Part shown: one piece after another, positions 6,433 through 25,582 of the stretch
Position numbering within the stretch: position 1 is the first letter of the stretch
Layout of the letters: each line of letters starts with the position of its first letter
Translations under genes and position numbers: made by a program
The notes under the pieces: generated by a model
What the model was told of the DNA's origin: nothing
Seen by the model: only the letters and a program-made list of their open reading frames with translations
The model's database searches: none
Source of the DNA: Escherichia phage FEC14
Direction: 5' to 3' (one strand)
Length of the DNA stretch: 64,000 nucleotides
Sequence record: MG383452

Positions 6433-6480
6433 TTTAACCTCCTTTGATAAATGAGGCTTTATTATCTTACATATCCCTAT

Positions 6481-6508
6481 AAAGAAAAACCCCGCCGAAG
6501 CGGGGTTT
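6481..6508 (-). terminator. rho-independent terminator downstream of the capsid gene
   Basis: GC hairpin accccgc-cgaa-gcggggt followed by a T-tract on the minus strand. The same hairpin sequence recurs near 12845 and 33080. Confidence 0.6.
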
Positions 6509-6526
6509 GTTATCAAAACCTGTCGC

Positions 6527-7849
6527 TTAGAACAGAGATTTGATCAGACCTTTGCGGAAATACGGGTTGCTGTCTTGAGCAATACCGTCAGCAGTCACGT
6601 AAACCTGCGGGTCTTGGTTAGCCGGAATCTGTACGAACGGGTTAGCACAGATGCCGTAACGGGTTTTGAACGCCATACGCGGAGCGAAGGTGGTTTCACC
6701 CTGGGTGCGGTACATTTCCAGCGGCACATACGGTGCGAAGAAGATACCGGCATCCAGCGCAGTTGCGCCTTTGTATGCCAGGGTGATATATTCTGCTACA
6801 GCATACGGGTCAACATAGACGCGCATGCCGTTGGACAGAACACCAGCGAAGGTCTGGCCAGTCGGGTCAACAGCCAGTTTAGTGTTTTCCTGCAGAACCG
6901 GAGCATAGTCCAGCATGCCAGACATCGCCAGAGCGGATGCCACGTTCGGAGAACACAGAACACGGTTGCCTTTACCACGACGGGTGTCAACACCGATACC
7001 GTTCGCTTCAACTTCCAGCATGAAAGTCAGGAACTTCCATTTTTCCAGCGCCCAACGACCGGAGATGTCCTGCGCGATATCAACAACACCGTTGGTGCCG
7101 AATTTTTTGAAGCGAACAGCACTGAAGTTCATGGTACGGATGAATTCACGGTTCATTTCCGCCTGAATTTCAGTTACCATCACGTCAGACAGGATATTAT
7201 CCACGTCTTCGCCGTGAATTGCCATCATGTCCTGACGCAGTTCATGGCTGTAATCAGCGTACAGGCCGCGAGACTTGGCAGTAACAGTCGCTTTCTGAAC
7301 AGTGATACCAACACGCGCCCAAGGGTTGGTGGTAGTACCCAGCAGTTCAGCATCACTTGACGGCATACCTTTACCGATAGTGGTCACGCCAGAGCCGGAA
7401 CCTTCGATCTCAGCCTGACTAAAGCCAGACGGGTCGCCAGCCTGTACAGTACCATCACCGGAATAGCCGGAATCGGCTTCCTGCATGAACAGTTCTTTAC
7501 GAGACTGTGCGGTGTTGGAACTGTCACCAACGCCCTGGCGAGCGCGCAGTGCAAAGATCTGACCGTCAGGACCAGACAGCGGCTGAACACCGAAGAAGTC
7601 CATCGCGATGTTGATCGGCGCCAGACGTTTTGCCATGTCGATCAGAACTGGCTGCCATTTACCGACAGTGCTGTTCACAGAACCAGGTGCGTCAGATTCG
7701 CCCAGGTTTTTTGCGTTCCATTCAGCCTGGTTCTGCATCAGACGGATGGTTACGTTTTCGGCAGACAGAGGTTGAATAGCTTCAGATTCTTTTTGGAGAA
7801 CTGGCAGCCACTGTTTGCGCATTTCTTCGGTTACAAGTTTCTTAGTCAT
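6527..7849 (-). CDS. major capsid protein (T4 gp23-like)
   Basis: 440-aa ORF immediately downstream of the scaffold/protease/portal block, in T4 gene order; GGAACGAG RBS; followed by a strong terminator. Confidence 0.7.
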   Translation of the reverse strand: MTKKLVTEEMRKQWLPVLQKESEAIQPLSAENVTIRLMQNQAEWNAKNLGESDAPGSVNSTVGKWQPVLIDMAKRLAPINIAMDFFGVQPLSGPDGQIFALRARQGVGDSSNTAQSRKELFMQEADSGYSGDGTVQAGDPSGFSQAEIEGSGSGVTTIGKGMPSSDAELLGTTTNPWARVGITVQKATVTAKSRGLYADYSHELRQDMMAIHGEDVDNILSDVMVTEIQAEMNREFIRTMNFSAVRFKKFGTNGVVDIAQDISGRWALEKWKFLTFMLEVEANGIGVDTRRGKGNRVLCSPNVASALAMSGMLDYAPVLQENTKLAVDPTGQTFAGVLSNGMRVYVDPYAVAEYITLAYKGATALDAGIFFAPYVPLEMYRTQGETTFAPRMAFKTRYGICANPFVQIPANQDPQVYVTADGIAQDSNPYFRKGLIKSLF

Positions 7850-7940
7850 GATGCTCGTTCCTTACATTGATATTCAGTTAAGTTGAAATTACTTAGTAGT
7901 TCAAAATCAAGCCCCCTTTCGAGGGCTGTGGCTGCTAAAA

Positions 7941-8780
7941 TTAGCCGTTCAGCAAAGCACTGATCTGGCGACGGACGGCTTCGTTGACTTCTTTGCCAAC
8001 TTCGTCTTTGTCGTCATCGTCATCGTCATCATCGTCGGCTTCACCTTCTTTCTTCGGTTTTTTACCTTCTTTGATGTCTTTTTCAGACTTGTCGCCATCC
8101 GGCTTGCCTTTTTCATTGTCTTTGCCGACTTTATCAGAGAAGTCATCTTTGCCTTCTACCAGGTTACGGAAGGTGCGCACACGGGATTCAAATTCAGACT
8201 CGGTCTGGAATTCAATACCTTCCAGCAGGTTGACAACAGTGTCTTTCTTGGTGTCAACCATGCCTTCACAAATGCGATCAATTACGTCGGTGCGCTGGCG
8301 TTTAGTCTCGCTTTCTTTGAGCTGAGCCAACTCTGTATTAGCCATATTGGCGCGTTGTTCTGCTTCAGCAAGGCGACTGGTGAGGGCGGCAATCTGACCG
8401 TCTGGGTCAGTAGCGAAACTCACACCTGCTTCTTTCAGCACGTTGGAGAAACCAGTGAGGAAGCGTTCAGCAGCTTCAGTTTTGATCTGAGCGTCAATAG
8501 CTGGGGCATTTTTGTTAGCCCATTCTTCAACCACCGCGTTGAGGAATGAGTCAACTTTCCCAGCCAATTGCAGAATGAAATTTTCTTTCAGGTCGGCGAT
8601 TTCTTTCTGGTGAGATTCTACCAAATTCAGGCGCTCGACGTTGCCAGCTGCTTCGGTTTCTTGGATAGCTTTCAGACGAGCCGCTTCAACTTTCGATTCC
8701 AGCAAATTGGATACTTTATCCAGGAAATCTGGGCTGATGCCGTTAACGCCTTCAAACAGATTTTGCAATTCAGGTTTCAT
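7941..8780 (-). CDS. prohead scaffold/core protein (T4 gp22-like)
   Basis: 279 aa, highly charged, with a poly-Asp tract (ADDDDDDDDKDE), located between protease and capsid genes. Confidence 0.6.
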   Translation of the reverse strand: MKPELQNLFEGVNGISPDFLDKVSNLLESKVEAARLKAIQETEAAGNVERLNLVESHQKEIADLKENFILQLAGKVDSFLNAVVEEWANKNAPAIDAQIKTEAAERFLTGFSNVLKEAGVSFATDPDGQIAALTSRLAEAEQRANMANTELAQLKESETKRQRTDVIDRICEGMVDTKKDTVVNLLEGIEFQTESEFESRVRTFRNLVEGKDDFSDKVGKDNEKGKPDGDKSEKDIKEGKKPKKEGEADDDDDDDDDKDEVGKEVNEAVRRQISALLNG

Positions 8781-8808
8781 GATAGTTTCCTTCTGAACGA
8801 TTTTTCAG

Positions 8809-8815
8809 TATTTAG
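8809..8815 (-). promoter_or_regulatory. late-promoter-like CTAAATA box
   Basis: Minus strand reads ctcaCTAAATActg about 30 nt upstream of the scaffold ATG. Confidence 0.4.
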
Positions 8816-8826
8816 TGAGCTGAAAT

Positions 8827-9495
8827 TCAGCCCAGATGATTCAATGCTGCATCAAGGCGGCGCAGGAAATCGTCTTCAACCTGGATATTGGTTTTCACCA
8901 ACTGGTCTACAACTTTCCCTTTAACATCACGAGGCATCCAAATACCCGAAGCCTCATCAAGCTGCCATTCAACAGATTCACTCACAGCCTTAACATAACA
9001 AACTTGTCCAGAAGGACGGTCGACTGCATCAACAGCGGTGAGCATAAAGCCAGGCTGAACGTCATCATAACCGTTTACTGACTTGGTCTCACCCAGGCCA
9101 CGTGTAGACACGGCCAGATTGAAGTCTGCTTCGGCCAATGCACGTATGATTTGGCCTTTTGGTGTATTTAAAATTCGCGCCCGACCGATGGCATTAGTGC
9201 CTTCCCAGCGAAGGGATTCGGTTTTGAGCGCTGCTTCCACCAGATTAGGGAAAGGATAGTCAGGATGTGTGACTTCACCGATTGCGCGACGATCTTGGAT
9301 ATACTCTTTGTCGTATGCTTCGACAGCAGGAATACCCACTTTCTGCAGATCATAGTTACGCCCGTTACGGTTGACTTGGTTACACATCACAAACGGACCT
9401 TCGATGAACATGGCCTTCCCACCAGTTGAGGTTGTGGCCTCACCGATTTGAAGATCCTTCCCTATCGCTGTGATCTCACGCAACAGTTTCATCAT
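8827..9495 (-). CDS. prohead protease (T4 gp21-like)
   Basis: 222 aa, position between portal/core and scaffold genes as in T4; AAGGAG RBS. Confidence 0.6.
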   Translation of the reverse strand: MMKLLREITAIGKDLQIGEATTSTGGKAMFIEGPFVMCNQVNRNGRNYDLQKVGIPAVEAYDKEYIQDRRAIGEVTHPDYPFPNLVEAALKTESLRWEGTNAIGRARILNTPKGQIIRALAEADFNLAVSTRGLGETKSVNGYDDVQPGFMLTAVDAVDRPSGQVCYVKAVSESVEWQLDEASGIWMPRDVKGKVVDQLVKTNIQVEDDFLRRLDAALNHLG

Positions 9496-9502
9496 AAACT
9501 CC

Positions 9503-9820
9503 TTACTTGTTCTTACTCAGTCCCATCATTTTGCGGAACTTCATAGCCTTTTTCTTGCGGCGCTCGATTTTACGTTGATAGCCCATTCCCATACGCTTTT
9601 TAGAGCGGAGAGCTTTGCGGTTGCCGATCTTGCGAACACGACGTTCGCTGGCGTCCATAACTTCACAACGTGAACCATCAGCCGACAATTTGAACCCAGG
9701 GGCACATTTCAAGCGGCGGCGGCGTTTACCACGAGCGTTCACTTTATCGATGACTCGCTGCTCGTCCATACGAGAGGCCAGGAAATCAGCGAACGTGGCG
9801 ATCTCTGTGATTTCCATCAT
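9503..9820 (-). CDS. small basic prohead core/internal protein (gp67/68-like position)
   Basis: 105 aa, Lys/Arg-rich, between portal and protease; AAGGAGA RBS. Confidence 0.4.
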   Translation of the reverse strand: MMEITEIATFADFLASRMDEQRVIDKVNARGKRRRRLKCAPGFKLSADGSRCEVMDASERRVRKIGNRKALRSKKRMGMGYQRKIERRKKKAMKFRKMMGLSKNK

Positions 9821-9828
9821 GCATCTCC

Positions 9829-9999
9829 TTACTGGCCGTTGTTGTTTGAATTCATATCAGCTGCGATAGAATCCAGAACATATGCTGTGCCTTGGTTTAA
9901 TAGTTCTTGACTACGTGCATCAAGTTCCATGTTGCATTCTGCAACAGCAGTTTCAGTGTCACCGTCAATTACTGCACGAACGATATCAATTGCGCTCAT
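9829..9999 (-). CDS. small hypothetical protein (about 56 aa, below ORF-track cutoff)
   Basis: My own translation of the minus strand gives an ATG ORF preceded by GGAGA; coordinates approximate. Confidence 0.3.
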   Translation of the reverse strand: MSAIDIVRAVIDGDTETAVAECNMELDARSQELLNQGTAYVLDSIAADMNSNNNGQ

Positions 10000-10040
10000 G
10001 ATTTTGATCTCCGAATTAATTTTCTATATTTAGTTGAACT

Positions 10041-11723
10041 TTAAATACTATCGTCTGTTGAACCGGAGAATGGGATAGTCTCAGGTTTAAACTTCAACGG
10101 ACTAACATCTGAACCGCTATAATTGCCAGTTTCATCTGCTTGAACCTTCGGATAGAGACCTTTCTTCTTCTCTTCCGCGATCTTCGTTTGTTGTTCTTTA
10201 ACTTCTTCATCAGACATACGCAATACATTTCTCATGACGTAGTCTATGGAGAAAATGGAACCAACAAATGGCTCAACAGTGTTCAATGAAGCCAGACGAT
10301 CATTCAAGATAGCGTTTTCTTGTTGTTCACGAATGTAACTATCGGATGTGAATTCAAACTTTATAAACGGTTTGATCTTCTCATTCCAATCCTTTTCATC
10401 CGTAACGCCTTTCAAAATTAACTGGCGGCGCAAGAATTCCATGAAGAAATGGGAGTAACGGCGTCGTAACCCAGCACAGAACTTGCTGAAGCGCAGCTCT
10501 TCCTGTGTAATCTCCGCAAGGTTAGAACCCCCAATGTTAATAGATCCTTCCTCTTGGAGGCGGCTCTTAGGGATCATTAGAGCATCATAGAGTTTTTCAC
10601 GGAAATAGTTCACGTGATCCATTTCGCCCAATTGATTCCCACCCCCAACAGTCGCAATCTCTGTAGCATTCTGACCTTCGCGGCGCGGCAACCAATAATC
10701 CTCTGCAATACCCATAAGATGGGCATTACCTGTTATCTTACCAGTGGTGCGGTCATATGCGTTGCGGTTTTTGAATTTACCCATCATCATGGTCATGTAT
10801 TCTTCAGCAGATTTCTTACCGAGAGTACCGACGTCAAGATAGAATGCGCGTTTCTCAGGGGCGCGAGTGATGGCATAAATTACAGTCGCATCTTCAGTCG
10901 TAACCAGGTTGTTCAACGGACGGATAGCAGGATTTAAAAGGCCTGGGACAATACCATTGGCCAATGGCTCTTCACCACTATCGATGTAAACAATGCTTTC
11001 GTCATCGAATACGAGTTCTTGCTGTGAAGGCTGGAAGTTCTGGGAAGTACCAGATTGGCCAGTGAATTGGTTTCGATTATAATTCGGGTTGTAATAATAC
11101 TTCAATGTTACAGATTCTATTGCTTCAATACCGCCTTCACGCATCGCCTTCTCAACGATATAGACAGGACGAATGCAACGAGAATCAAGCATAACCAATT
11201 TCTTGATCCCGCCTTTTTTATTCGTGGGATCAACGATGACATGATATGCTTGTCGACCGTCAACATACCATTTCCGGATCTTCTGATATGCTGTATTGTC
11301 AAAGTCCATCAAGTGCATAACTTCTTTGAAGCATTCGGTGATAGATTCTTTAACAGTATCAGATATCCCTTCAACTTTGTCAAGGTTTACTGTCACTGGA
11401 GTTTCATCTTCCTCACAGGTGACAACGTCATTAACAATGATGTCCACAGCTTTGCGGATTTCTGGCTGCTGGGCCATGGACTGATATTCTTCCACAACTG
11501 TTTTAACGCTGAGAAGTTCACTCTCAACGCCAACATAGTTGTAGGTGTTTGCACCGCCCTGAAGGATTATAGAACCGTCTTGAGCATCGTCCAGAGCAAC
11601 AACTGTCGCCTTGGTGAGCAACAATTCATCTTGTTTTTGGGCTAACTTATCGGTGTCGACTTTGGCATTGACTAAACCGCCGCCGCCAAACAAACCGAAG
11701 AACCCTGTGCCGTATCCAGCCAT
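10041..11723 (-). CDS. portal protein (T4 gp20-like)
   Basis: 560-aa ORF between tail tube and prohead genes in T4 order; GAGGA RBS. Confidence 0.7.
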   Translation of the reverse strand: MAGYGTGFFGLFGGGGLVNAKVDTDKLAQKQDELLLTKATVVALDDAQDGSIILQGGANTYNYVGVESELLSVKTVVEEYQSMAQQPEIRKAVDIIVNDVVTCEEDETPVTVNLDKVEGISDTVKESITECFKEVMHLMDFDNTAYQKIRKWYVDGRQAYHVIVDPTNKKGGIKKLVMLDSRCIRPVYIVEKAMREGGIEAIESVTLKYYYNPNYNRNQFTGQSGTSQNFQPSQQELVFDDESIVYIDSGEEPLANGIVPGLLNPAIRPLNNLVTTEDATVIYAITRAPEKRAFYLDVGTLGKKSAEEYMTMMMGKFKNRNAYDRTTGKITGNAHLMGIAEDYWLPRREGQNATEIATVGGGNQLGEMDHVNYFREKLYDALMIPKSRLQEEGSINIGGSNLAEITQEELRFSKFCAGLRRRYSHFFMEFLRRQLILKGVTDEKDWNEKIKPFIKFEFTSDSYIREQQENAILNDRLASLNTVEPFVGSIFSIDYVMRNVLRMSDEEVKEQQTKIAEEKKKGLYPKVQADETGNYSGSDVSPLKFKPETIPFSGSTDDSI

Positions 11724-11745
11724 GATCTAAGTCCTCAACATTTTC

Positions 11746-11770
11746 TTGTAATTAGTGAGGGGGAATAACA
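11746..11770 (-). other. intergenic GC hairpin between tail tube and portal genes
   Basis: Inverted repeat gggggaat-gtta-ttccccc; possible attenuator or RNA-stability element. Confidence 0.35.
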
Positions 11771-11790
11771 TTCCCCCAGCACCGAGGACA

Positions 11791-12324
11791 TTACAATGAC
11801 TTGTCAGAAACGGCTTGGAAATAACGCAAGTCGACAGTGAACTGTGTGTAAGAGTCCATTGCCGACATATCGAGTTCCAATTGGCCGAGGTTTTGAGGCC
11901 AGCCACCCTGCAAAGTCCATGTCTTAGTCACGTTGTCATTCGCGTCCAGAAGTTCCATGATGATATCACGGAAATAATCATCTGGATTCGCGCTGGCGCG
12001 GTTGTTTTCACTACCGTTGATGAATTGCTGCCACACTTCAAAAGCATTGTATGGAGCGTTGTTCACCACGTTAATGAACGTCACAGGAAGCGCTTCGAAA
12101 CGACGATCCCCTGGGAACGGAAGTTCACGACCACCCCAGGGCACCAGAATTTCGCCCAGCTGACCTGTTGGGGTGTTGGTGGTTACAGCCAGCAAGGACA
12201 CGTCACGAATTGTGTCGGAACCAGCAACAAAAGAAGGAAAGTTTACAGTCACACGCCAGCGGTGTTGGCGTTGTACGCCGCCCCCTCGTGACATGGCTGC
12301 GCGAAACTCATTGACTGTCGCCAT
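11791..12324 (-). CDS. tail tube protein (T4 gp19-like)
   Basis: 177 aa, adjacent to the sheath gene (separated only by the endonuclease insertion). Confidence 0.6.
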   Translation of the reverse strand: MATVNEFRAAMSRGGGVQRQHRWRVTVNFPSFVAGSDTIRDVSLLAVTTNTPTGQLGEILVPWGGRELPFPGDRRFEALPVTFINVVNNAPYNAFEVWQQFINGSENNRASANPDDYFRDIIMELLDANDNVTKTWTLQGGWPQNLGQLELDMSAMDSYTQFTVDLRYFQAVSDKSL

Positions 12325-12354
12325 TTTTATATCTCCAAATAAGAGTACACAATT

Positions 12355-12813
12355 CTAATTAGTCGTCAATCTTTTAATCTTCATGGAAGAAAGATCGAAA
12401 CCATGATGAACATTACTTGAAACAGGTTCGATTTCACACAATTCCCAACGGGGATCTATGAGAGAAACAAGACCAATGTGTTCACCTGTGGATGTCAATT
12501 TTGCTGCAGTTTTACCCAGCATATGACTTCCATCATTACCGCCTTTATTCATGTTGTAACCCATCTCATAAGAATTATATTGAGCGATGAGTTGCTTCTC
12601 TAATTCCCATTTATGGACTTCATCGGTCTGAGCAATTACAACGAAAGTAAATCCAGATGTTCCATACTTACGCATAGCATCATACAATTCACTTTGGACT
12701 CCATGATGAAAAGCATTCGCAAAATGCTGATCATATCTTCGTTGTGGGTCATTGGTCACACCGATGTAGACCTTTCCATTAGTTATCGTTTCAATTTTGT
12801 ATGCGTATATCAT
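12355..12813 (-). CDS. GIY-YIG homing endonuclease (free-standing)
   Basis: N-terminal YAYKIETITNGKVYIGVT...RRYDQH matches the GIY-YIG motif with conserved Arg and His; inserted between tail tube and sheath genes. Confidence 0.7.
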   Translation of the reverse strand: MIYAYKIETITNGKVYIGVTNDPQRRYDQHFANAFHHGVQSELYDAMRKYGTSGFTFVVIAQTDEVHKWELEKQLIAQYNSYEMGYNMNKGGNDGSHMLGKTAAKLTSTGEHIGLVSLIDPRWELCEIEPVSSNVHHGFDLSSMKIKRLTTN

Positions 12814-12837
12814 TCAATAACTCAAATCAATAAGACA

Positions 12838-12866
12838 AAGGAAAACCCCGCCGAAGCGGGGTTGGT
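12838..12866 (-). terminator. rho-independent terminator downstream of the sheath gene
   Basis: aaccccgccgaagcggggtt hairpin followed by a T-tract on the minus strand. Confidence 0.55.
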
Positions 12867-12871
12867 CATTT

Positions 12872-14767
12872 TTATGAAGCAGCAACGATGCCGCCACCGG
12901 ATTCGATTTCGCTGAACTCCATATCTGGTCGAACTGCAGCAAAATCCAAATAAATCCAGTTAATGCTGTACTCAGGCTTCAACCAAATACCAGCAACCAT
13001 TTGGTTTGCCGCAATGATATCAGCAGTGTTGTTGTCTTCATCACATTTGACTTTACCATCGTAAATCGCGCCCATATTTGCCAGCTGGCGAATATATGGA
13101 CGAACCGCATTGCTGAACAGACCACGTGTAAACGCGTCATTGTTCTCACCAAGATAGTATTTGGCGATTGCGGCGATGTTCTGCTCAGCCATGATGAACA
13201 GGCCACGAACGTTGATACGGTCAAACGCCGACGGGCGGGTCAGGCCAGTTTTGTCACCATACAGGACGATGCCTTCATTGGAGAAGGTTACGATGCTGTT
13301 GATCTGGTTGCGGTACAACACAGCACGTTCATCAGAAGATGCAGACCACGCCATTCGATTATAGTTGTTGTATTTACCACGGTTGTGGAACGCCGGAGAT
13401 TTGTAGATACCCGCGATTTCAATGCTTCGCGCCCAAACACCTGCGGTGCCACCACAAGCCGGAATCCAACGCATTTTGTCGTTGTACTTGTCGTACACAT
13501 ATGCCCAGTTATCATCCATGAAGAAATAAGAAGAGTCGCGAACAAGGCTTTCACGCCAAGCAACGACATCATCCATTTCACGACCACGGTTGCCAACAAC
13601 CGTATCACGGAGCGGGGATACGAAAGATACCGTATCTTTTCGCTCAGTAGATAAGTCGATCAATGCTTGTTGCTCAATCAGTTCTTCACAGTACGCAAAT
13701 ACTGGCTTCGCATCATATGCTTCAGCATTGTTCAAGACTTGGATAGCTGCCACGCGGTTGATGTTATAATCGTCTACGCCGCCTTCTAATTCAACAACAC
13801 CTGCGGCCAGAGCGGTAGCGAAGGTGTACACCCAATTTGATGTATCATTGATGACATCTTTGAAGTACGCATTCGCGCCATCGGACTTTTTGGAACCCTG
13901 TGTGTTCTGCATGAGTTCGTATTTTTCGATAATAGAACCAGATGCGCCAACAGTGGTAATCACGGCGGTTGCAGTCAGCCCCTTATCATCTGGAACAATA
14001 GCAGTAACTGTCTGGGGACCAATAGCTTTATGGGTCACGATGACAGTGTTGGACTTCACGACAACAGAAGAATAAACACTTGTCAGGGAAGTTAGTGCTG
14101 TACCGATTTTGGTTGCCAAATCGGCTGGAGTATCAGTATCCAGATATGCGATATCTTCACCTGCCACACTGATGGTGCCAGCAGCAGTAGCCGTACCAGA
14201 AACGGAGATACGGTCAACCTGACCGACCGCGCCAGCAGAGTCGGTAATGCGACCAACTTTGTCTACGACAACTACATGGAATTCACCAGACTGAGGTGCG
14301 TATGCAAAGTTATTACGGAATTCCCAAGTTGAGAATCCAGCAGCATCACAAACATTGATAGCAATATCATTACCCAGGGAACCTGGATAACGACCAGTCC
14401 AAGTGATGGACGCCGAAGGACTTGCTGTTTCAAAATCCAGTTTGTTTTTGATCGCAATCGCTGTCTGACCTTTGGTAACAGAGTTCTTGGCCAGAGGACC
14501 AACAACACGGGTCACCCATGCCATAGAGCTGTAAGACAAAAAGTCCGCGATTACGAGAAAATCGGTCGCAGTACTGTCGTTGGGTTTGAAGAATTTCTTC
14601 ACCAAACCTGTCTCACCACCAGTCACCAGCACTGGAAGTTCAACTTCACCCCATTGAAATTTTCCGACGGTCGCGCCCTGAACAACAACGGACGGGGACG
14701 TCTGAAGCGTGGCATCACGCTCAGTCCACTGAACGGACGGCGCAACGCTGAAGCTTTGAGTTGCCAT
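12872..14767 (-). CDS. tail sheath protein (T4 gp18-like)
   Basis: 631 aa from the ATG with GAAGGA RBS (track ORF starts at 14800); directly downstream of the terminase genes as in T4. Confidence 0.7.
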   Translation of the reverse strand: MATQSFSVAPSVQWTERDATLQTSPSVVVQGATVGKFQWGEVELPVLVTGGETGLVKKFFKPNDSTATDFLVIADFLSYSSMAWVTRVVGPLAKNSVTKGQTAIAIKNKLDFETASPSASITWTGRYPGSLGNDIAINVCDAAGFSTWEFRNNFAYAPQSGEFHVVVVDKVGRITDSAGAVGQVDRISVSGTATAAGTISVAGEDIAYLDTDTPADLATKIGTALTSLTSVYSSVVVKSNTVIVTHKAIGPQTVTAIVPDDKGLTATAVITTVGASGSIIEKYELMQNTQGSKKSDGANAYFKDVINDTSNWVYTFATALAAGVVELEGGVDDYNINRVAAIQVLNNAEAYDAKPVFAYCEELIEQQALIDLSTERKDTVSFVSPLRDTVVGNRGREMDDVVAWRESLVRDSSYFFMDDNWAYVYDKYNDKMRWIPACGGTAGVWARSIEIAGIYKSPAFHNRGKYNNYNRMAWSASSDERAVLYRNQINSIVTFSNEGIVLYGDKTGLTRPSAFDRINVRGLFIMAEQNIAAIAKYYLGENNDAFTRGLFSNAVRPYIRQLANMGAIYDGKVKCDEDNNTADIIAANQMVAGIWLKPEYSINWIYLDFAAVRPDMEFSEIESGGGIVAAS

Positions 14768-14810
14768 AATATCATTCCTTCTCGGTAGAGTTTCGCTCAA
14801 TTTGAAAGAT

Positions 14811-14817
14811 ATTTAGT
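14811..14817 (-). promoter_or_regulatory. late-promoter-like CTAAATA box
   Basis: Minus strand reads atcaCTAAATAtct about 45 nt upstream of the sheath ATG, between terminase stop and sheath start. Confidence 0.4.
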
Positions 14818-14819
14818 GA

Positions 14820-17030
14820 TCAATTCTTAAACCACTCATCCATGGTCATCCCTGACATTTCGTTGAAAACTTGAATACCCCCGAAACCAGGCAAATGCTC
14901 AGTTTCGGATGGGGTGTCTCCAACGACTAAACCACCAAATGGGAATACCTGCTGAGATTCAGTTGAAGACATTCGGTTTCTCATGTCCTGAGAAATACTT
15001 GTAGATGTCAAATCACTGAACCATTCTTGTTTAACTGCCCAAGAATATAAGACCAACGGCATGACACAGTCATCGTGACAACCGTCATCGGCTTCATACC
15101 GAGCGCCTTTGAACACAAATGTACTGAGTTCATCTATCGTGTCCTGGTCTTCTATCACCAACATTTCTTTCTCAATGAGCGCTTTCAGGTTAGCACAACC
15201 GATAGATCGGACTTTTCTGTTGGTATTGATACCAGGTTCCGGTTTACGTCCACCAATCCGTTTCCCCGTCCCTTTGTTATCTGTTGATGTGAATATGATT
15301 TCTGGATATTCTATCTCTTGATAAAGAATTGTAATAACCTGACCGCCGACGTCGTTGTTTGTTTCAACAAGGACAGGGCATTCCCCGTATTCGGTGCACA
15401 TATCAGCTATCGTGTATGCATACATCATAGGAGGTATCGTGTTATTCCTGTACTTGGCTGCTATAACATGCGGATATTCAGTTATATCCAGAATTGTTAA
15501 GACGGAATAATCTCCTTCCACCCCCTTCCCAGTGTCCGCAATCCCAAAGTAGAGACGTTGTGGGTCGTATTCCTTATAAATCTTGGTGAATTCATTAGGT
15601 TCCCGATACAACTTGGACGTCATTTTATCTAAGCATTTGGCCGGAATCAATGAACCCACGGAACCACGGAACTTAATGCCAAATTCTTGATCGAAACGAG
15701 CATCCCCCAGACGGGCACGTTGTTTGGTTTCCCAATCTGGATCTTTGGTATATGCCGGAACCTTATACCATGGGACTTCAGTTAGGTGGAAGTCGTTGTA
15801 TTGTGGATGGCGCGGATCTGCTTTGGTGACAATATCATAGAACAACCCTCGCTGGCCTTTCGGAGTACTTGTCAAAATACAGCGTGATGTATCGGCAGAT
15901 GCAATGGCTGGGAAAGTTGATTCCCAAAATTCAAAGTCGTTTTCGATAAACGCGACTTCGTCAACGTACAAGAGCGATACAGAACGACCACGGATGGAGT
16001 CCGAAGACGTGGCATAAGCGTATATCTTAGAACCATTCTCAAACTCTATCAGGGTAGAACCAAACTTCTCACAACCCTGCTGAAGGAAGAATGGGAGGTC
16101 CTGATACGCCTTCCTGATACGGTCAAGAATTTCAATCGCTTGTTTCTCTTTGTTTGCCAGTACCGCGATTTCTTTGTCTGAGTGGAACATCGCATACCAA
16201 AGAAGAAACGCAGCCACGACCGTGGTATTATGGCTGAGGAACCCATTCGTGTAATAACGTTGATCGCTGGACTTGACTTGCAAGTCATACATGTGGTGGT
16301 ACTCACCAGTCTCCCAGATCTCAGAGATGAATTCTATTCCCTCCTGGGTCATTATGGCATCTCCGGCCTCCATGTCTTTAGCAAATACTTCGCGCCCATA
16401 TTCATTGAAGAACATGTGCTCATCTGCGACATGAATTGTGCGTCCGGTTTCAGTCCTGACAACGTATTCAGCGTATTCTTTCGTTTTATGAGCGGCAATA
16501 ACCGGAACCCAGCCAGTGTCGGACTCAACAAAATATCGTTTCCCGAAACGGCTGTCTACAAACTTATTGTGGTTGCCAATGGTATTCAGTGGCACAGCAT
16601 GGTTCGGTCCTTCGAAGCGCTTGTGAAGCTCTTCTATGGTGAGATGCAACTCTTGTTGACTGATTGTATCATAGACATAAACAAGAGTATCACCACGGAC
16701 GCATTTACCGGACTGACGAGCCTGGACGACCGCATTGAATCGATAGTCCTGAAAGTCGTGGAACAACTGCTTCTGATAATCATGCATATCGAAAAGGATA
16801 AAGCCCTTATCGATCGTGGTTATCTTGTAATAGTTGGCGGCGAAGTAGTGTGCATCCATAGAACATTCAACGAATTCGTCTTCTTGTTCATCTGTCAGCA
16901 TTAACTCGACTCGAGGAGCACGCACAGAAGGTTTGCGCATGAACGTTTGGTCCATACGCAATTTCACATCGTCTATTTTGAACCCCGTTTTAATTGGGGC
17001 ATATTCTATATCACGCTTCTGATACGCCAT
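14820..17030 (-). CDS. terminase large subunit (T4 gp17-like) containing a mini-intein
   Basis: Walker A is split: ...VVQARQSGK | C...intein...HN | TTVVAAFLLW. After excision it reads QSGKTTVVA, which from memory matches T4 gp17. Walker B LLYVDE is present downstream. Confidence 0.85.
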   Translation of the reverse strand: MAYQKRDIEYAPIKTGFKIDDVKLRMDQTFMRKPSVRAPRVELMLTDEQEDEFVECSMDAHYFAANYYKITTIDKGFILFDMHDYQKQLFHDFQDYRFNAVVQARQSGKCVRGDTLVYVYDTISQQELHLTIEELHKRFEGPNHAVPLNTIGNHNKFVDSRFGKRYFVESDTGWVPVIAAHKTKEYAEYVVRTETGRTIHVADEHMFFNEYGREVFAKDMEAGDAIMTQEGIEFISEIWETGEYHHMYDLQVKSSDQRYYTNGFLSHNTTVVAAFLLWYAMFHSDKEIAVLANKEKQAIEILDRIRKAYQDLPFFLQQGCEKFGSTLIEFENGSKIYAYATSSDSIRGRSVSLLYVDEVAFIENDFEFWESTFPAIASADTSRCILTSTPKGQRGLFYDIVTKADPRHPQYNDFHLTEVPWYKVPAYTKDPDWETKQRARLGDARFDQEFGIKFRGSVGSLIPAKCLDKMTSKLYREPNEFTKIYKEYDPQRLYFGIADTGKGVEGDYSVLTILDITEYPHVIAAKYRNNTIPPMMYAYTIADMCTEYGECPVLVETNNDVGGQVITILYQEIEYPEIIFTSTDNKGTGKRIGGRKPEPGINTNRKVRSIGCANLKALIEKEMLVIEDQDTIDELSTFVFKGARYEADDGCHDDCVMPLVLYSWAVKQEWFSDLTSTSISQDMRNRMSSTESQQVFPFGGLVVGDTPSETEHLPGFGGIQVFNEMSGMTMDEWFKN
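16227..16703 (-). mobile_element. mini-intein (159 aa) inserted in the terminase P-loop
   Basis: Residues 110-268: starts with Cys (CVRGDTLV), has a T..H block (TGRTIHVADEH), ends in SHN followed by +1 Thr. Too short to carry a homing endonuclease domain. Confidence 0.8.
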
Positions 17031-17691
17031 CGTCTTCTTCCTTCACATCAACTGTTTCACCATCAATGATTTCATCTTCTGGTTGTTGTGCGGCCTTTGC
17101 TTGTGCTCTTTCTTCAGCGCGGCGGCGTGCATCTTCGATCGTCTTCAATAAATCGCGAGAAGATCGCGCCTTTTTCCCAACCGATACTGTTGTTGTTCCG
17201 TCTGGTGAAGTTGTAACATCCACTGTCGTGTCATCAACAGGTGGTTCTTTATCACCTGTTACTGCCTTGATGGTTTTCTGGTTTTCCATCAAGTCTTTAT
17301 TCAGACCTCGCATGAGTTCACCCAATTCACGGAAAACAGAAAATGCTCGCGGAGCTTCTGTGGATGCAGCCAATTTAGCGGCTTGTCCCATCATGAACAT
17401 TGTGGCTTCTTGCATGGCATATGTTGTGTCGCGTATCCGTTTGTAATCCGTTGTAGCATCAGTGTCCGCAAACTCAGGTACTTTGGATTCCTTGGAAGCA
17501 ATATCCTCCAATGAAGGCGGTTCAGGAATCGGCTGATACCCTTCCGGACGTTCACCAAACCATTCACCTGTATTTTCATCGAAGTCAATACCTGGACGAG
17601 GGGCGACAGCCTCCATTGCCTCCTTCCCAACTTCGTCTCGGGCAGTCACCGCATCAAGTGTGGCGAGTAACCTTTCTGACATATTGCTCAT
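17011..17691 (-). CDS. terminase small subunit (gp16 position)
   Basis: 226 aa from the ATG with GGAGGA RBS; overlaps the large terminase start; sits between gp15-like and gp17-like genes. Confidence 0.5.
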   Translation of the reverse strand: MSNMSERLLATLDAVTARDEVGKEAMEAVAPRPGIDFDENTGEWFGERPEGYQPIPEPPSLEDIASKESKVPEFADTDATTDYKRIRDTTYAMQEATMFMMGQAAKLAASTEAPRAFSVFRELGELMRGLNKDLMENQKTIKAVTGDKEPPVDDTTVDVTTSPDGTTTVSVGKKARSSRDLLKTIEDARRRAEERAQAKAAQQPEDEIIDGETVDVKEEDDGVSEA

Positions 17692-17693
17692 GA

Positions 17694-18392
17694 TCAATCC
17701 TCCGGATGATGTATGCCGTCTTTATCAACTCGGAACCATTCAGGAAGTTCCGACCATGGCATGTTCAAATCATTAGACATTTCAATAATTATCTCTTTGA
17801 TGACGTTTGGATCCCCACCGCCCGAACCATCATCAACCCAATAATCTTCTCCATAGATGTGACCATGTAATTGAAAATTGAATGAACAATCTATGTGTGG
17901 TGATTCTGTTGCGTCTCCTTCCCAGTTGTCAGAAATCGTGTGATTTACCAACATTATCTTCACGTTCTGATCTTGAGATAAAGTGTCGTTGTCCTTTATC
18001 TGACAGTCAACAGAAGGAGTGAACACAGAATAAATTTGTTCCAACACCTGTAGCATTTCGACCAGTTTCTTCGTTCTGATGTTATATTCAAAATCTATAA
18101 TGATCGGAATTCGTTGTTTGGACCGCGCAGTTGCAGTCGATATCTGATTATGATACGACTTGGTCACCTGTTTATTGATTTCGAACTGACCAAAGGACAT
18201 TGTTGCAAATGGCAGCATATTGGCTGGCACGTTCCTGTTGAGGTCATTACGGCGGCCAATGGCCATATGCAGCGGGATTTCCATCAAGCCACGTTCGGTT
18301 TTGACTTTTAAATCCGACATGATAGCGTTGAAAACATGGATATATTTCAACAACGATTCATGGTAGAAATATTTTTCAAATGGTCTGGCCAT
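17694..18392 (-). CDS. tail/neck completion protein (gp15 position)
   Basis: 232 aa; called from T4 synteny only. Confidence 0.45.
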   Translation of the reverse strand: MARPFEKYFYHESLLKYIHVFNAIMSDLKVKTERGLMEIPLHMAIGRRNDLNRNVPANMLPFATMSFGQFEINKQVTKSYHNQISTATARSKQRIPIIIDFEYNIRTKKLVEMLQVLEQIYSVFTPSVDCQIKDNDTLSQDQNVKIMLVNHTISDNWEGDATESPHIDCSFNFQLHGHIYGEDYWVDDGSGGGDPNVIKEIIIEMSNDLNMPWSELPEWFRVDKDGIHHPED

Positions 18393-18394
18393 GA

Positions 18395-19036
18395 TTATTC
18401 CCCGAAGTCTATCTTCATTTTATTGGGCGAAAGATCTTTCTCTATTTCGTCCGCAAATTGGTTATCCGTTTGCAGGCTGGCGTCTTTGTACACACCGTCT
18501 CCTTCCAGATCCTGCAATCGTTTATCGATATCGTCTATTTCAGATACACCTGTATCGAAATCTTCGTTACCGTATTGGAACAACGTACATGGTAGGGAAT
18601 ATGTGTACCATTTCCCAAATTGCATGAATTCTTCATCGTTGTTCGGGTTATTCACTTTAAATATTTTGTTAGCCATAGGCAGATATATCAAATCACCTTC
18701 TTGAGGCATTTGTTCAAGGCCTGGACCATTACCAATAACTTCTGAAAAACGACGACGAGCAATAGTGAAGGTCACTTCATCTTGTAATTGGATACCGCCG
18801 AACTTTTCCCACATCTGTGTGTTGAAGCCTTGATAATCCTGCATATACACTTCGATGTCAAACGCTTGGTCGAATTTGTGTTCGGCCTCGTTTAAAATTG
18901 GGTATTTTTCAACAATAGAACGTGGGATATACTTGACGTCAATCCCACGCAATTGTATCATCTCGACCACCAAGTCATCAATTAATTTTTGAGTACCTTG
19001 ATGTGCTGTATAGTTGAAATATTTTGAAGTAGCCAT
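18395..19036 (-). CDS. neck protein (gp14 position)
   Basis: 213 aa; called from T4 synteny only. Confidence 0.45.
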   Translation of the reverse strand: MATSKYFNYTAHQGTQKLIDDLVVEMIQLRGIDVKYIPRSIVEKYPILNEAEHKFDQAFDIEVYMQDYQGFNTQMWEKFGGIQLQDEVTFTIARRRFSEVIGNGPGLEQMPQEGDLIYLPMANKIFKVNNPNNDEEFMQFGKWYTYSLPCTLFQYGNEDFDTGVSEIDDIDKRLQDLEGDGVYKDASLQTDNQFADEIEKDLSPNKMKIDFGE

Positions 19037-19059
19037 GACTTTACCCTCAATTTTGAAGG

Positions 19060-19066
19060 TATTTAG
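19060..19066 (-). promoter_or_regulatory. late-promoter-like CTAAATA box
   Basis: Minus strand reads tgaCTAAATAcct about 25 nt upstream of the gp14-like ATG. Confidence 0.4.
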
Positions 19067-19097
19067 TCAATCATTAATTCTTTTGAGGAATTGATAA

Positions 19098-19310
19098 ATG
19101 AAGGTTGAAGATATTAAAGAAACTCGTGACGGAAGGCGTGTGAGAATTATCTGTGTAGATGCTAAAATCGCCGATGGTTCATATAACATTGTGGGTCTTA
19201 TCAAAGGCGAAAAGGATAATGATTTTATTGAATGGTGGGACGAAAAGAACGTGGTTGATGGTTATATTCTAGCAAATTCAGATCCTTCCGGACGCGACAT
19301 CAAGTTATAA
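19098..19310 (+). CDS. small hypothetical protein on the opposite strand
   Basis: 70-aa ORF with GAGGAA RBS and ATG, followed by a hairpin; embedded between minus-strand neck genes. Confidence 0.45.
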   Translation: MKVEDIKETRDGRRVRIICVDAKIADGSYNIVGLIKGEKDNDFIEWWDEKNVVDGYILANSDPSGRDIKL

Positions 19311-19314
19311 AAAG

Positions 19315-19336
19315 AAAGGCGGGATAACCCGCCTTC
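19315..19336. terminator. bidirectional terminator hairpin
   Basis: aaggcggg-ataa-cccgcctt between convergent gene ends. Confidence 0.5.
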
Positions 19337-19338
19337 TC

Positions 19339-20091
19339 TTATCCCATCATAAAATCGATAGGGTATTGCTGACCAGTACGCAATTCTTCCTCCAGCCGCT
19401 CTATCTCGGTCTCGGCCTCACTGAACATACTATCACCATCCAGTTCGATACCACCAGGGAGACGGATGCCTCTTGCCTTCTTAAGCACCTCTGCCCAACG
19501 GCGCTTGACCAATGCAGTCGCATACGCTTTCAACCACATATCATTCCATGCTTCAGCGTTTTCTTCCGATTCGGGGTCGATATTTTGATAACAACGAAAA
19601 GCCAGAGTTTCATCAACAATGGCAGCAAACTGCGGGTAAAGGCGTCGCTGGAACTTCTTGTACACAAAATTACGGCGAACATTTAAGACGCTTGTGATAT
19701 CCGACAGGCGTTGTTGCATGGAAACATAATCAATGAGACGAATAGAAACCAGCGCTGCTTTGGGGACAAGCATTGCTTGAGCCATTTGCCATTGAGGAGT
19801 TGCCCAGTTTCCGATTGACTCAATAGGAGGTCCAGGGATAACTTCAATCACATCGTCAATATCATCGGGAAATTCTATATATCCCTTGTCGATATCTTCT
19901 TGTTTAACTTGGTACAGGAAGAACGCATCTTGGCTACCATCACGATGATATTCCCAAAATTTCTGCAGAGCATCATCGACTGCATCTTCGACTTGTGAAC
20001 TGTCAAGGTTAATTTGGATCACAGGAGCGCCCAATTTACGCAAGACATAATTCATAAAAGATTTTTTGTCTCGAATCTTATTGACGGCCAT
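19339..20091 (-). CDS. neck protein (gp13 position)
   Basis: 250 aa from the internal ATG with AAGGGGAA RBS (track ORF starts at 20148). Confidence 0.45.
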   Translation of the reverse strand: MAVNKIRDKKSFMNYVLRKLGAPVIQINLDSSQVEDAVDDALQKFWEYHRDGSQDAFFLYQVKQEDIDKGYIEFPDDIDDVIEVIPGPPIESIGNWATPQWQMAQAMLVPKAALVSIRLIDYVSMQQRLSDITSVLNVRRNFVYKKFQRRLYPQFAAIVDETLAFRCYQNIDPESEENAEAWNDMWLKAYATALVKRRWAEVLKKARGIRLPGGIELDGDSMFSEAETEIERLEEELRTGQQYPIDFMMG

Positions 20092-20419
20092 TGTTATTCC
20101 CCTTTTGCTGCAAATCAGATACAGTAATCCGCAGTGTGCGAACATCATCTGAAAGACTGCTGCTATTGAGTTTTAACTCAGCCATGTTTTGTTTGACATA
20201 TGCGAGGTCAGTATTCATGATCGCCATACGTTCACTCATGTCATTCACTTTCTGAAGAACTTGATCCATCTTGTTGGAATCTCGTTCCAATACATTCACG
20301 CGCGTTTCCATCCCGCCCATGAACCAAAGGAACGATGCTGCCGAGACCAATGCAGAAGCCACGACGGCAGTTAAGATACCACGGATGTCAAGCCCCGTTC
20401 TTTCAGCTTGCGTCGCCAT
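20078..20419 (-). CDS. hypothetical membrane-anchored coiled-coil protein
   Basis: 113 aa with a hydrophobic N-terminal segment (ILTAVVASALVSAASFLWF); strong AAGGAGGT RBS. Confidence 0.45.
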   Translation of the reverse strand: MATQAERTGLDIRGILTAVVASALVSAASFLWFMGGMETRVNVLERDSNKMDQVLQKVNDMSERMAIMNTDLAYVKQNMAELKLNSSSLSDDVRTLRITVSDLQQKGNNNGRQ

Positions 20420-20651: not shown

Positions 20652-20703
20652 ATCTTTATCCTCTATTGGTTTGGTGGGCTTTACGCCCACCTTTCAACAT
20701 TAT

Positions 20704-25542: not shown

Positions 25543-25575
25543 TTTGATGCTCCATCTAGTGCCATTTTATAGAGA

Positions 25576-25582
25576 TATTTAG
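25576..25582 (-). promoter_or_regulatory. late-promoter-like CTAAATA box
   Basis: Minus strand reads gtataCTAAATAtctc about 35 nt upstream of the 1612-aa gene ATG. Confidence 0.4.

Follow-up and report, generated by a model that had tools for sequence, protein, structure and literature searches.

I-TevI, the endonuclease encoded by the td intron of phage T4, is a protein of 245 aa that contains a long linker, a zinc finger, a minor-groove helix and a helix-turn-helix (HTH). T4 also has the Seg proteins (SegA-G), GIY-YIG endonucleases encoded by free-standing genes, which bring about intron-less homing and marker exclusion (PMC2988022). Kutter et al. (2011) listed orf195 among two putative homing endonucleases of phage CBA120 (PMC3184105). 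The gene considered here, which separates the tail sheath gene from the tail tube gene, is the same gene as CBA120 orf195, Vi01_159c and PHROG 5123, with a protein identity of 96-100% and an unchanged position. It is already known under the label "homing endonuclease with GIY-YIG motif", and the GenBank records that annotate it number well above one hundred; its presence is therefore an ordinary finding. Its missing DNA-binding module, its overlap with the tube promoter and the alternative occupants of its locus are unmentioned in the CBA120 and Vi01 records and in PMC3184105. The new detail is that a copy without the DNA-recognition half is nevertheless intact across three phage genera.

The window, a stretch of 64,000 nt from Escherichia phage FEC14 (MG383452), is of the Vi1-like genus Kuttervirus (Ackermannviridae). 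The gene and its neighbors have the following positions in it:

11791 to 12324, minus strand: tail tube gene (gp19-like), the downstream flank
12355 to 12813, minus strand: 152-aa short-form GIY-YIG endonuclease ORF (ATG at 12811-12813, TAG at 12355-12357)
12872 to 14767, minus strand: tail sheath gene (gp18-like), the upstream flank

The translation of the ORF starts with MIYAYKIETITNGKVYIGVTNDPQRRYDQH. The preliminary description had given exactly this ORF of 152 aa, and its N-terminal quotation matches; it had also described an insertion between the tube and sheath genes in an otherwise T4-like order, which is what we find, the order TerL, sheath, ORF, tube, portal being that of T4 genes 17-18-19-20. 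In T4, 116 bp lie between genes 18 and 19, and there is no gene there. The sheath start at ATG 14767 was chosen by analogy with the 631-aa Vi01 protein, the ORF listing having an upstream TTG. The ORF is an outlier in composition, with a GC content of 37.9% and a GC3 of 32%, compared with 51% and 54% for the tube gene and 48% and 47% for the sheath gene. An identical protein (100%) is encoded by Salmonella phage PST-D24. When the family HMM was run on the window, the 152-aa ORF was the sole match, and no paralogues were found within the window.

The protein divides into two parts, which were delimited by alignment with homologues and with longer relatives, by the I-TevI profile, by an AF2 model and by Foldseek:

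12529 to 12813, minus strand: GIY-YIG catalytic domain, residues 1-95
12358 to 12528, minus strand: residues 96-152, a conserved linker followed by a low-confidence tail

The GIY-YIG domain proposed in the preliminary description was recovered far beyond chance by profile searches, with a Pfam match to PF01541 over residues 2-87 (E=2.5e-11, its 44.1 bits being well over the cutoff of 22.6) and a full-length match to PHROG 5123 (E=8e-94). A profile search against the PDB matched I-TevI (1MK0) over residues 1-92 with E=1.8e-18, and the Y, Y, R, H, E and N of the two proteins correspond. The constellation of catalytic residues, comprising the two Tyr of GIY and YIG, Arg, His/Tyr, the metal ligand Glu, and Asn, is complete: Y5, Y16, R26, H30, E72 and N87 are invariant among 67 homologous sequences, and all six positions are intact. 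The I-TevI counterparts are presumably Y6, Y17, R27, E75 and N90, a numbering with which the mutant PDB chains of I-TevI agree for E75 and R27. The AF2 model (pLDDT 84.9, and 89-97 over residues 1-90) predicts a three-stranded antiparallel sheet flanked by helices, and Foldseek superimposes this predicted fold on 1LN0 and 1MK0 with a target-normalised TM of 0.82-0.84 and an rmsd of 1.7-2.0 A, 1LN0 being the best (0.84, 1.7 A). The 152-aa ORF thus belongs to the I-TevI/Seg lineage of homing endonucleases, as a free-standing gene for a GIY-YIG endonuclease, and it resembles I-TevI in its catalytic domain, both by profile and by predicted fold (PDB 1LN0/1MK0). Membership in the T4 endonuclease II (DenA)-like group was rejected, as the PDB profile search at E<=1 gave I-TevI only and EndoII was absent from the top 50 Foldseek matches.

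The locus also resembles those of the T4 Seg proteins, which are likewise free-standing between conserved genes, in the orientation of their neighbors and with poor translation signals; in both, an essential gene downstream has its promoter overlapping the endonuclease gene, and the flanking co-conversion of Seg may have a counterpart here in a co-conversion-like tract (PMC2988022). The suggested search of Seg-like families confirmed a related lineage but no orthology with SegD, the match to which covers 69 aa at 28% identity (E=5e-4); SegE is 26% identical over 110 aa. Orthology with SegD is also rejected by position, since in T4 segD is found on the opposite strand, between genes 23 and 24, and nothing occupies the 18-19 junction. 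The label "SegD homolog" in the CBA120 annotation is loose and is corrected here.

Unlike I-TevI, the protein of the window is free-standing and has 152 aa, in which the catalytic domain is followed by no more than a short beta-hairpin linker and a tail. Seg proteins have 205-223 aa and a C-terminal DNA-binding region, which the window protein does not have. In the model, the linker consists of a beta-hairpin at residues 101-117 (STGEHIGLVSLIDPRW) and a short helix at 121-124, and the tail has low pLDDT; residues 96-152 gave no match in the Foldseek search against the PDB, in which only the catalytic domain matched, and the Pfam search of the protein returned nothing beyond GIY-YIG. Full-length GIY-YIG endonucleases occur at the same junction in Menlow (230 aa), in pertopsoe, ChubbyThor and SKML-39 (235 aa), in rabagast (245 aa) and in Mansal and Se-J (264 aa). 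Landing pad and GIY-YIG domain are common to them and the short form, as is the STGEHIG..DPRW linker hairpin, and over approximately 130 aa the Menlow protein and the short form are 58% identical. They differ from it in an extra basic module of approximately 85-100 aa, in passing TIGR01453 and in their near-identity across genera. Alignments with five long forms (Menlow, 230 aa; pertopsoe, 235; rabagast, 245; RPN242, 237; Mansal, 264) show that the short form ends after the shared beta-hairpin linker and is without the basic C-terminal module present in all full-length relatives at the locus.

We call the module of the long forms DNA-binding because of its weak Pfam matches to NUMOD3 and HTH, its predicted HTH-like helices, its basic charge and the alignment of the long forms with SegD, which runs end to end. 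The long-form model adds a helix at 143-156 and an HTH-like pair at 184-190 and 195-200. In a full-chain Foldseek search, this module gave no significant match, to the solved I-TevI DNA-binding domain or otherwise, and a weak one to I-HmuI (probability 0.51). The long-form C-terminal parts carry a net charge of +4 to +9, whereas the tail of the short form has a net charge of 0 (pI of the protein, 6.4). On the TIGR01453 profile ("group I intron endonuclease"), the long forms at the junction score 60-65 bits, above the cutoff of 56.05; the short form scores 49.2 bits and covers profile positions 5-93 of 215. As the C-terminal module is absent and the score is below the cutoff, the 152-aa allele falls outside the canonical homing endonucleases, and the original designation as a free-standing homing endonuclease stands for its lineage but not for its form. 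Lacking an HTH and having a neutral tail, the protein may be a poor DNA binder.

Comparison of genomes shows the sheath-tube junction to be a landing pad at which endonuclease genes settle throughout the family. No gene is present there in T4, four Agtrevirus phages or EspM4VN (the named genomes are P46FS4, Gloob, MK-13, Ag3, EspM4VN and T4), at least six other arrangements occur elsewhere, and the states seen are empty, single, double, replaced and inverted. This presence, absence and replacement across relatives bears out the earlier suggestion of a recombination hot spot. The short allele is present at >=80% aa identity in approximately 196 of the approximately 258 matching phage records listed, and within them the allele is close to fixation in Kuttervirus and in Taipeivirus. 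Among the 60 best-ranked records, empty sites were limited to Agtrevirus and EspM4VN, and no Kuttervirus had one; nor, among the records examined, was the junction found empty in Taipeivirus, which with Kuttervirus is the home of the short allele. The expectation that relatives may lack the gene thus holds for Agtrevirus and EspM4VN, but the gene is not sporadic in close relatives. A side effect of near-fixation, with no empty Kuttervirus junction seen, is that few naive homing targets are on offer.

The longer endonuclease genes beside or replacing the short allele are the elements that visibly come and go. They show clear presence and absence within Agtrevirus, and the long form of pertopsoe, a Kuttervirus, is 94.5% identical to that of ChubbyThor, an Agtrevirus, whereas the flanks are approximately 80% identical across these genera. 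In the Kutterviruses Mansal, pertopsoe and KE31, the short allele has been replaced by another endonuclease gene, and since these phages are viable, the short allele is dispensable. In the rabagast and bering/EP75 types, long forms are inserted beside the short allele, which therefore does not exclude them. The full-length genes are the currently mobile elements of the junction.

The signals around the gene are as follows:

12332 to 12336, minus strand: GGAGA, ribosome-binding site of the tube gene, from the sequence
12356 to 12363, minus strand: late-promoter-like motif ACTAATTA for the tube gene, overlapping the endonuclease stop codon
12821 to 12823, minus strand: GAG, weak Shine-Dalgarno sequence 7 nt upstream of the ORF ATG, read directly from the sequence
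12844 to 12863, minus strand: G+C-rich terminator-like hairpin AACCCCGCTTCGGCGGGGTT, after the sheath stop and upstream of the endonuclease gene

The weak ribosome-binding site noted in the preliminary description is thus present, as GAG only, compared with GGAGA for the tube gene. Two types of junction hairpin were seen across genomes, and the Menlow record annotates its hairpin as a terminator. The motif ACTAATTA has 11 matches against 4.0 expected, and all nine minus-strand copies lie 31-45 nt upstream of start codons of late structural genes (the distance for the sheath gene being measured to ATG 14767). It belongs to a block of 20 nt, ACTAATTAGAATTGTGTA(A)C, which is found in empty and occupied junctions alike and encodes LIRIV* in the long forms and TN* in the short form. 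Scanning the region for sigma-70 promoters yielded internal, near-background matches only. The endonuclease gene lies in a conserved site between the terminator-like hairpin of the sheath gene and the late-promoter-like motif of the tube gene. Since it lacks a late-promoter motif, is preceded by a terminator-like hairpin and has a Shine-Dalgarno sequence of 3 nt, we suggest that small amounts of the protein are made when transcription of the sheath gene reads through. The junction, delimited by a terminator hairpin and a late promoter, is a well-resolved natural landing pad with varied occupants.

The embedded promoter raises the question of whether the gene is a non-functional relic, a decaying remnant retained since the essential tube promoter overlaps its 3' end and constrains deletion. 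The truncated architecture would fit the degeneration phase of a homing cycle, the tube late-promoter motif does overlap the stop codon, and retention of seg genes is favored by embedded promoters (PMC2988022). However, between genera the gene has a dN/dS of 0.086 overall (0.086 for the N-terminal part and 0.067 for the C-terminal part), both halves are constrained, the catalytic residues are all invariant, and a frameshift-like break was found in only one of approximately 150 Kuttervirus copies (SE14). Amino-acid conservation over 459 nt is beyond what a promoter overlap can explain, and the promoter block stands alone in empty junctions, so that clean loss is possible. A decaying pseudogene is rejected on this evidence, and we regard retention as a mere relic as very improbable. 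The near-fixation of the short allele and its strong purifying selection indicate instead that the protein is still used.

Kuttervirus, Taipeivirus, Miltonvirus and, at a greater distance, a metagenomic contig all have short-form orthologues at this locus (MDA2066, 3M and the metagenomic contig P0009 are examples). The dS between genera is 1.30 for the endonuclease gene, 1.90 for the tube gene and 1.59 for the sheath gene, values so near saturation that they support vertical inheritance only approximately. Between the window and Vi01, dS is 0.067 for the endonuclease gene and 0.358 and 0.775 for the flanks, and a near-identical block at approximately 12201-12700, consisting of the gene and the first approximately 100 nt of the tube gene, lies in surroundings that are 8-15% divergent. 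As the whole 19-kb comparison with Vi01 is mosaic, approximately 18% of its 200-nt bins being equally similar, the low dS, which looks like recent spread, was not taken as proof of recent homing.

This block, together with the intact catalytic residues and the low GC of the gene, could be read as the mark of a fully autonomous and currently mobile homing endonuclease, in which the beta-hairpin and tail of the linker suffice for site recognition and which spreads by cleaving junctions without the gene. Small functional homing enzymes exist, such as T4 MobE. MobE is listed as mobile (PMC2988022). The locus, moreover, is a proven landing site of endonucleases with empty alleles in Agtrevirus. Nevertheless, the DNA-binding module is missing and the TIGR01453 cutoff is not reached, no presence/absence polymorphism of the short allele was seen in close relatives among the 60 best-ranked records, the dS between genera is similar to that of the flanks, which suggests long co-residence over repeated invasion, and long forms invade beside the short allele. 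We therefore consider autonomous mobility quite unlikely.

We suggest, with a probability of roughly 55%, that the gene is an old, truncated but still selected resident nuclease of homing-endonuclease descent at the landing pad, with a proposed activity in mixed infection. An internal deletion in a full-length ancestor would have removed the NUMOD3/HTH module and produced the short allele, whose reading frame would since then end inside the tube promoter block; that the change ran from long to short, by deletion, is what parsimony favors. The short allele would be old, given its presence at the same locus in several genera, its near-fixation and its strong purifying selection. The 152-aa protein is probably still a nuclease, one whose cutting or nicking of DNA during mixed infection with related phages would be relaxed in its targeting or depend on a partner. 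Such cutting would stimulate break repair in favor of its own junction haplotype, as in intron-less homing or marker exclusion.

The same observations are open to explanation by domestication, in which the nuclease has lost its sequence-specific DNA-binding module and is kept for a benefit to the phage. It might, for example, nick or degrade unmodified host or competitor DNA in a relaxed manner while its own DNA with hypermodified thymidine is spared, functionally like T4 endonuclease II, or it might stimulate recombination-dependent replication. Purifying selection over the whole protein across genera, near-fixation at an identical locus in three genera, the lost targeting module and the non-basic tail would all agree with this, as would the use of a modified thymidine (hmdU-type) by the Vi1-like family (Kutter et al. 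2011; PMC3184105) and precedents among homing endonuclease genes such as Odn in ICP1 (PMC10448857). As in ICP1 Odn and the defunct T4 I-TevIII, the targeting part has been lost or exchanged and the gene retained (PMC2988022; PMC10448857); unlike I-TevIII, the window gene keeps all its catalytic residues and is under purifying selection, and unlike Odn, the protein has gained no new DNA-binding domain. On the other hand, the catalytic domain is of the I-TevI type, with EndoII outside the top 50 Foldseek matches, a terminator upstream and a weak ribosome-binding site in a late structural operon point to a leaky selfish gene rather than an early host-shutoff enzyme, phages with a replacement are viable, and GC3 is still foreign-like. 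Domestication is consequently a possible explanation, which we hold as a minority view. Its variant in which a Seg-like derivative, kept by selection in Kuttervirus, Taipeivirus and Miltonvirus, acts as a general or partner-guided nuclease, perhaps telling phage DNA with hypermodified thymidine from unmodified DNA of the host or a rival, and as the fixed "anchor" of a landing pad for transient full-length genes seems to us unlikely. Compared with these, a truncated resident of homing-endonuclease descent remains our preferred reading. The commonest occupant of the junction is a truncated allele without a DNA-binding module under strong purifying selection, which raises the question of what has maintained a "headless" homing endonuclease for so long.

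The landing pad is also accompanied by a divergent tract in the neighboring sheath gene:

12872 to 13071, minus strand: 3'-terminal approximately 200 nt of the sheath gene, a hyper-divergent tract that differs by type of occupant

Among Kutterviruses, identity in this tract is 80-85%, compared with 91-97% further upstream, and the protein is nearly identical; between genomes with different occupants, the approximately 20% divergence is almost all synonymous. The tract is co-conversion-like and may stem from long-form neighbors as well as from the short-form enzyme. An essential structural gene of these phages thus carries co-conversion-like synonymous tracts.

The preliminary description placed a free-standing GIY-YIG homing endonuclease gene with a weak ribosome-binding site at a T4-like junction of tail tube and tail sheath genes. 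The position and N-terminus it gave for the gene were reproduced. The gene order in the window is terminase, sheath, ORF, tube and portal, the same as that of T4 genes 17-18-19-20; in T4, genes 18 and 19 are separated by just 116 bp with no gene between them.

Features of the sheath-tube junction
11791..12324, minus strand: tail tube gene, on one flank of the ORF
12355..12813, minus strand: endonuclease ORF of 152 aa, start ATG, stop TAG, translation beginning MIYAYKIETITNGKVYIGVTNDPQRRYDQH
12844-12863: terminator-like hairpin upstream of the endonuclease gene, annotated as a terminator in Menlow
12872..14767, minus strand: tail sheath gene, on the other flank

The ribosome-binding site is indeed weak, with GAG, 7 nt upstream of the ATG, as the only Shine-Dalgarno-like element. 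The composition of the ORF is foreign (GC 37.9%, GC3 32%, against 48-51% and 47-54% in the flanking genes). The surrounding 2.5 kb is 99.4% identical to Salmonella phage FrontPhageNews, 98.5% to E. coli phage CBA120 and 92% to Salmonella phage Vi01, all three belonging to Kuttervirus (Ackermannviridae), and the gene corresponds to CBA120 orf195 and Vi01_159c. Many records label it "GIY-YIG endonuclease" or "homing endonuclease with GIY-YIG motif", phage PST-D24 encodes the identical protein, and Kutter et al. (2011) described orf195 as "a homolog of T4 segD" and one of only two putative homing endonucleases in CBA120 (PMC3184105); the gene and its family assignment are therefore already known. 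Two records that are 98-99% identical to this region, OR844942.1 ("Enterococcus phage Efm 3-10") and MN871475.1 ("Pseudomonas phage Pa-sanjiao"), bear implausible-looking host labels, which may reflect contamination or mislabelling.

The GIY-YIG assignment held in profile searches with Pfam GIY-YIG (44.1 bits, cutoff 22.6, E=2.5e-11) and PHROG 5123 (full-length match, E=8e-94). An alignment of 67 sequences, with identities as low as 26%, shows no variation at Y5, Y16, G18, R26, H30, E72 or N87, and its profile, searched against all PDB sequences, matched only the catalytic domain of I-TevI (E=1.8e-18, residues 1-92). The AlphaFold model of the protein (mean pLDDT 84.9; residues 1-90 at 89-97) superposes on 1LN0/1MK0 with a target-normalised TM of 0.82-0.84 and an rmsd of 1.7-2.0 A; its structural matches to UvrC and Slx1 were much weaker, and T4 EndoII was not in the list of matches. 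The 152-aa protein (the short form) has a GIY-YIG catalytic domain of the I-TevI type with its active-site residues intact. In direct BLASTP, T4 SegD aligned at 28% over 69 aa (E=5e-4), which makes "SegD homolog" a loose label, and T4 SegE at 26% over 110 aa. An HMM of the endonuclease family found no second member in the 64-kb window.

In other Ackermannviridae, full-length GIY-YIG genes (the long forms) occupy precisely this junction, as in Menlow (230 aa), pertopsoe (235 aa), RPN242 (237 aa), rabagast (245 aa) and Mansal (264 aa). All five share with the window protein the catalytic domain and a conserved linker (…STGEHIG.V…DPRW…), modelled in both forms as a confident beta-hairpin followed by a short helix, but they run ~85-100 residues further (F.L.SP.G.E.E..GN…GL.YS…Y…GW.L.RI). 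In the long-form model (mean pLDDT 87.3) this extension forms a helix (143-156), two strands and a pair of HTH-like helices (184-190 and 195-200), and Pfam gave weak NUMOD3 and HTH matches to this stretch. The Menlow long form can be aligned with T4 SegD from end to end, the HTH-like segment LSYSTINNYIN / VSPKTIRNWIN included. The long forms pass the cutoff of NCBIfam TIGR01453 (group I intron endonuclease; 60-65 bits, cutoff 56.05), whereas the short form scores 49.2 bits and covers profile positions 5-93 of 215. With a pI of 6.4 the short protein is slightly acidic, and its net charge after the catalytic domain is 0, compared with +4 to +9 in the long forms. The C-terminal module is absent from the short form. 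At the DNA level, short forms match long forms through …CEIEPV, a gap of ~190-240 nt follows, and the two rejoin in the final ~15-30 nt ahead of a common block, ACTAATTAGAATTGTGTAAC, which encodes …LIRIV* in the long forms and, in a different frame, …TN* in the short form. Internal deletion of the DNA-binding module would be the most parsimonious origin of the short form.

The empty junction of Agtrevirus P46FS4, with a sheath-tube spacing of just 78 bp, consists successively of the sheath stop, a G+C-rich hairpin, ~14 nt, ACTAATTAGAATTGTGTAAC, a GGAG ribosome-binding site and the tube ATG. Every endonuclease gene at the junction lies between this hairpin and the 20-nt block. The window contains 11 copies of the motif ACTAAWTA (4.0 expected). 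Each of the nine on the minus strand is located 31-45 nt upstream of the start codon of a late structural gene (for the sheath, measured to the ATG at 14767), the genes concerned including those for sheath, tube and portal and several for neck and tail proteins.

Minus-strand copies of ACTAA(A/T)TA
8809, 10027, 11749, 12356, 14810, 19060, 25576, 33033, 36430

Several copies extend to ACTAAATACC(CC). The motif probably serves this phage family as its late promoter, as TATAAATA does in T4. A late motif of the CTAAATAcCcc type has reportedly been proposed for Vi1-like phages. In Kutter 2011 the late promoter was still listed as unidentified (PMC3184105). With a copy ahead of it, the tube gene retains its own putative promoter, overlapping the endonuclease stop (12355-12363). 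No such motif was found for the endonuclease gene itself, and considering also the upstream hairpin and the weak ribosome-binding site, we infer that it is expressed at a low level by read-through. This parallels the T4 seg genes, which have poor translation signals and whose retention is favoured by the promoters embedded in them (PMC2988022).

An inert relic kept in place by the promoter overlap is highly improbable and is contradicted by the dN/dS values.

Nei-Gojobori estimates, window against Klebsiella phage MDA2066
Endonuclease, whole: dN/dS 0.086, dS 1.30
Endonuclease, residues 1-95: dN/dS 0.086
Endonuclease, residues 96-end: dN/dS 0.067
Tube: dN/dS 0.014, dS 1.90
Sheath 3' part: dN/dS 0.023, dS 1.59

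Against Serratia phage 3M, synonymous sites are saturated and dN is 0.38. These values indicate that the short form is old and that its divergence has roughly kept pace with that of its neighbours; strong purifying selection acts along the entire protein, which rules out a decaying relic. Truncation and conservation together are a small, testable curiosity. We suggest, with a probability of roughly 55%, that the short form is an endonuclease descended from homing enzymes that, though truncated, has long been resident and remains under selection, with putative continuing nuclease activity. In mixed infections it would probably still favour its own junction haplotype through break-induced inheritance, its targeting being relaxed or assisted, and the full-length neighbour genes would be the currently mobile elements. 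Domestication as a nuclease serving the phage, for which the hypermodified thymidine DNA of the family would permit self/non-self discrimination, is a more doubtful alternative.

It had also been proposed that the gene might be absent from close relatives.

Junction states in relatives
Short form, at least 80% aa identity: ~196 of ~258 phage records matching the region (Kuttervirus, Taipeivirus)
Short form, 56-63% identity, same locus: Serratia Miltonvirus 3M and one metagenomic contig
Empty: Agtrevirus P46FS4, Gloob, MK-13 and Ag3; Enterobacter phage EspM4VN; T4
Long-form insert of ~725 bp, flanks ~95% identical: Agtrevirus ChubbyThor, SKML-39
Long form in place of short form, same strand: pertopsoe
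Long form in place of short form, opposite strand: Mansal, Se-H/I/J
DUF7487 + DUF559/MTES_1575 endonuclease (560-600 aa) on opposite strand, with 120-aa ORF: KE31, PH4
Short form with 245-aa long form upstream, 4-nt overlap: rabagast, S115, S118
Short form with 262-aa Mansal-like gene, opposite strand: bering, EP75, PhaxI, Det7 types

Empty junctions occur in four Agtrevirus phages, EspM4VN and T4; no Kuttervirus or Taipeivirus with an empty junction was found among the matches listed, and the position of the short form is conserved across genera. Salmonella phage SE14 (MK972690.1 90980-91434; 91.5% identity) gave the sole two-piece short-form alignment among these matches, its frameshift-like break reflecting either an error in sequencing or pseudogenisation of a rare copy. 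The occupants in Salmonella phage KE31 (703-2988 of comparison locus L004) and Escherichia phage PH4 (676-2894 of L005) comprise a large protein with DUF7487 repeats and a DUF559/MTES_1575 (Vsr-like) nuclease domain, and a conserved ORF of ~120 aa without a family match. The large protein probably belongs to the "Hef-like" type of endonuclease, which in LIMEstone1 has been listed on the upstream side of the tail tube gene (PMC3296691).

The 235-aa long form is 94.5% identical between pertopsoe (Kuttervirus; L003 1353-2057) and Shigella phage ChubbyThor (Agtrevirus; OL615013.1 141067-141771), which belong to two subfamilies, whereas the structural-gene flanks of the two genera share merely ~80-85%. 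The long form has clearly moved horizontally, by recent cross-genus transfer into the same junction.

The junction is a polymorphic landing pad with co-conversion-like tracts. Identity among Kuttervirus sheath genes is 91-97% from -1100 to -300 nt relative to the stop codon. Where the junction occupants differ, it drops over the final 200 nt to 80-85%, the between-genera level, the encoded protein being nearly unchanged. In rabagast the divergent tract is ~450 nt and is accompanied by the other hairpin type, and in KE31 the replacement also takes in the initial 300 nt of the tube gene. Against Vi01, the endonuclease gene and the first ~100 nt of the tube form a near-identical block (dS 0.067; tube 0.358, sheath 0.775). 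However, the 19-kb comparison (window 6473-25616 against Vi01, locus L013) is a mosaic with a mean divergence of 7.2%, made up of many near-identical patches (0-2 differences in each 200 nt) and, between them, blocks 10-19% divergent, so the block alone is no proof of homing by the short form. The mosaic indicates that Kutterviruses recombine pervasively across the structural module. Taken together, the tracts, the block and the mosaic support the recombination hot spot of the preliminary description, without pointing to any one enzyme as the source of the breaks, and agree with the published view that nuclease genes mark the borders of exchanged segments (PMC10448857). The observation in the preliminary description is confirmed and its interpretation supported in part; the fully autonomous homing endonuclease that it proposed is unlikely.

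Another near-identical patch against Vi01, at 16001-16600, lies in the large terminase gene (14820-17030), inside which a mini-intein of ~159 aa (residues 110-268; 16227-16703, minus strand) splits the Walker A motif (...ARQSGK / CVRGDTLV...FLSHN / TTVVAAF). Pfam Intein_splicing scored 27.3 bits on the terminase, under its cutoff of 35.8. The terminase length of 736 aa recurs in Vi01 and P46FS4, and a metagenomic relative has a terminase of 735 aa with an intein match.
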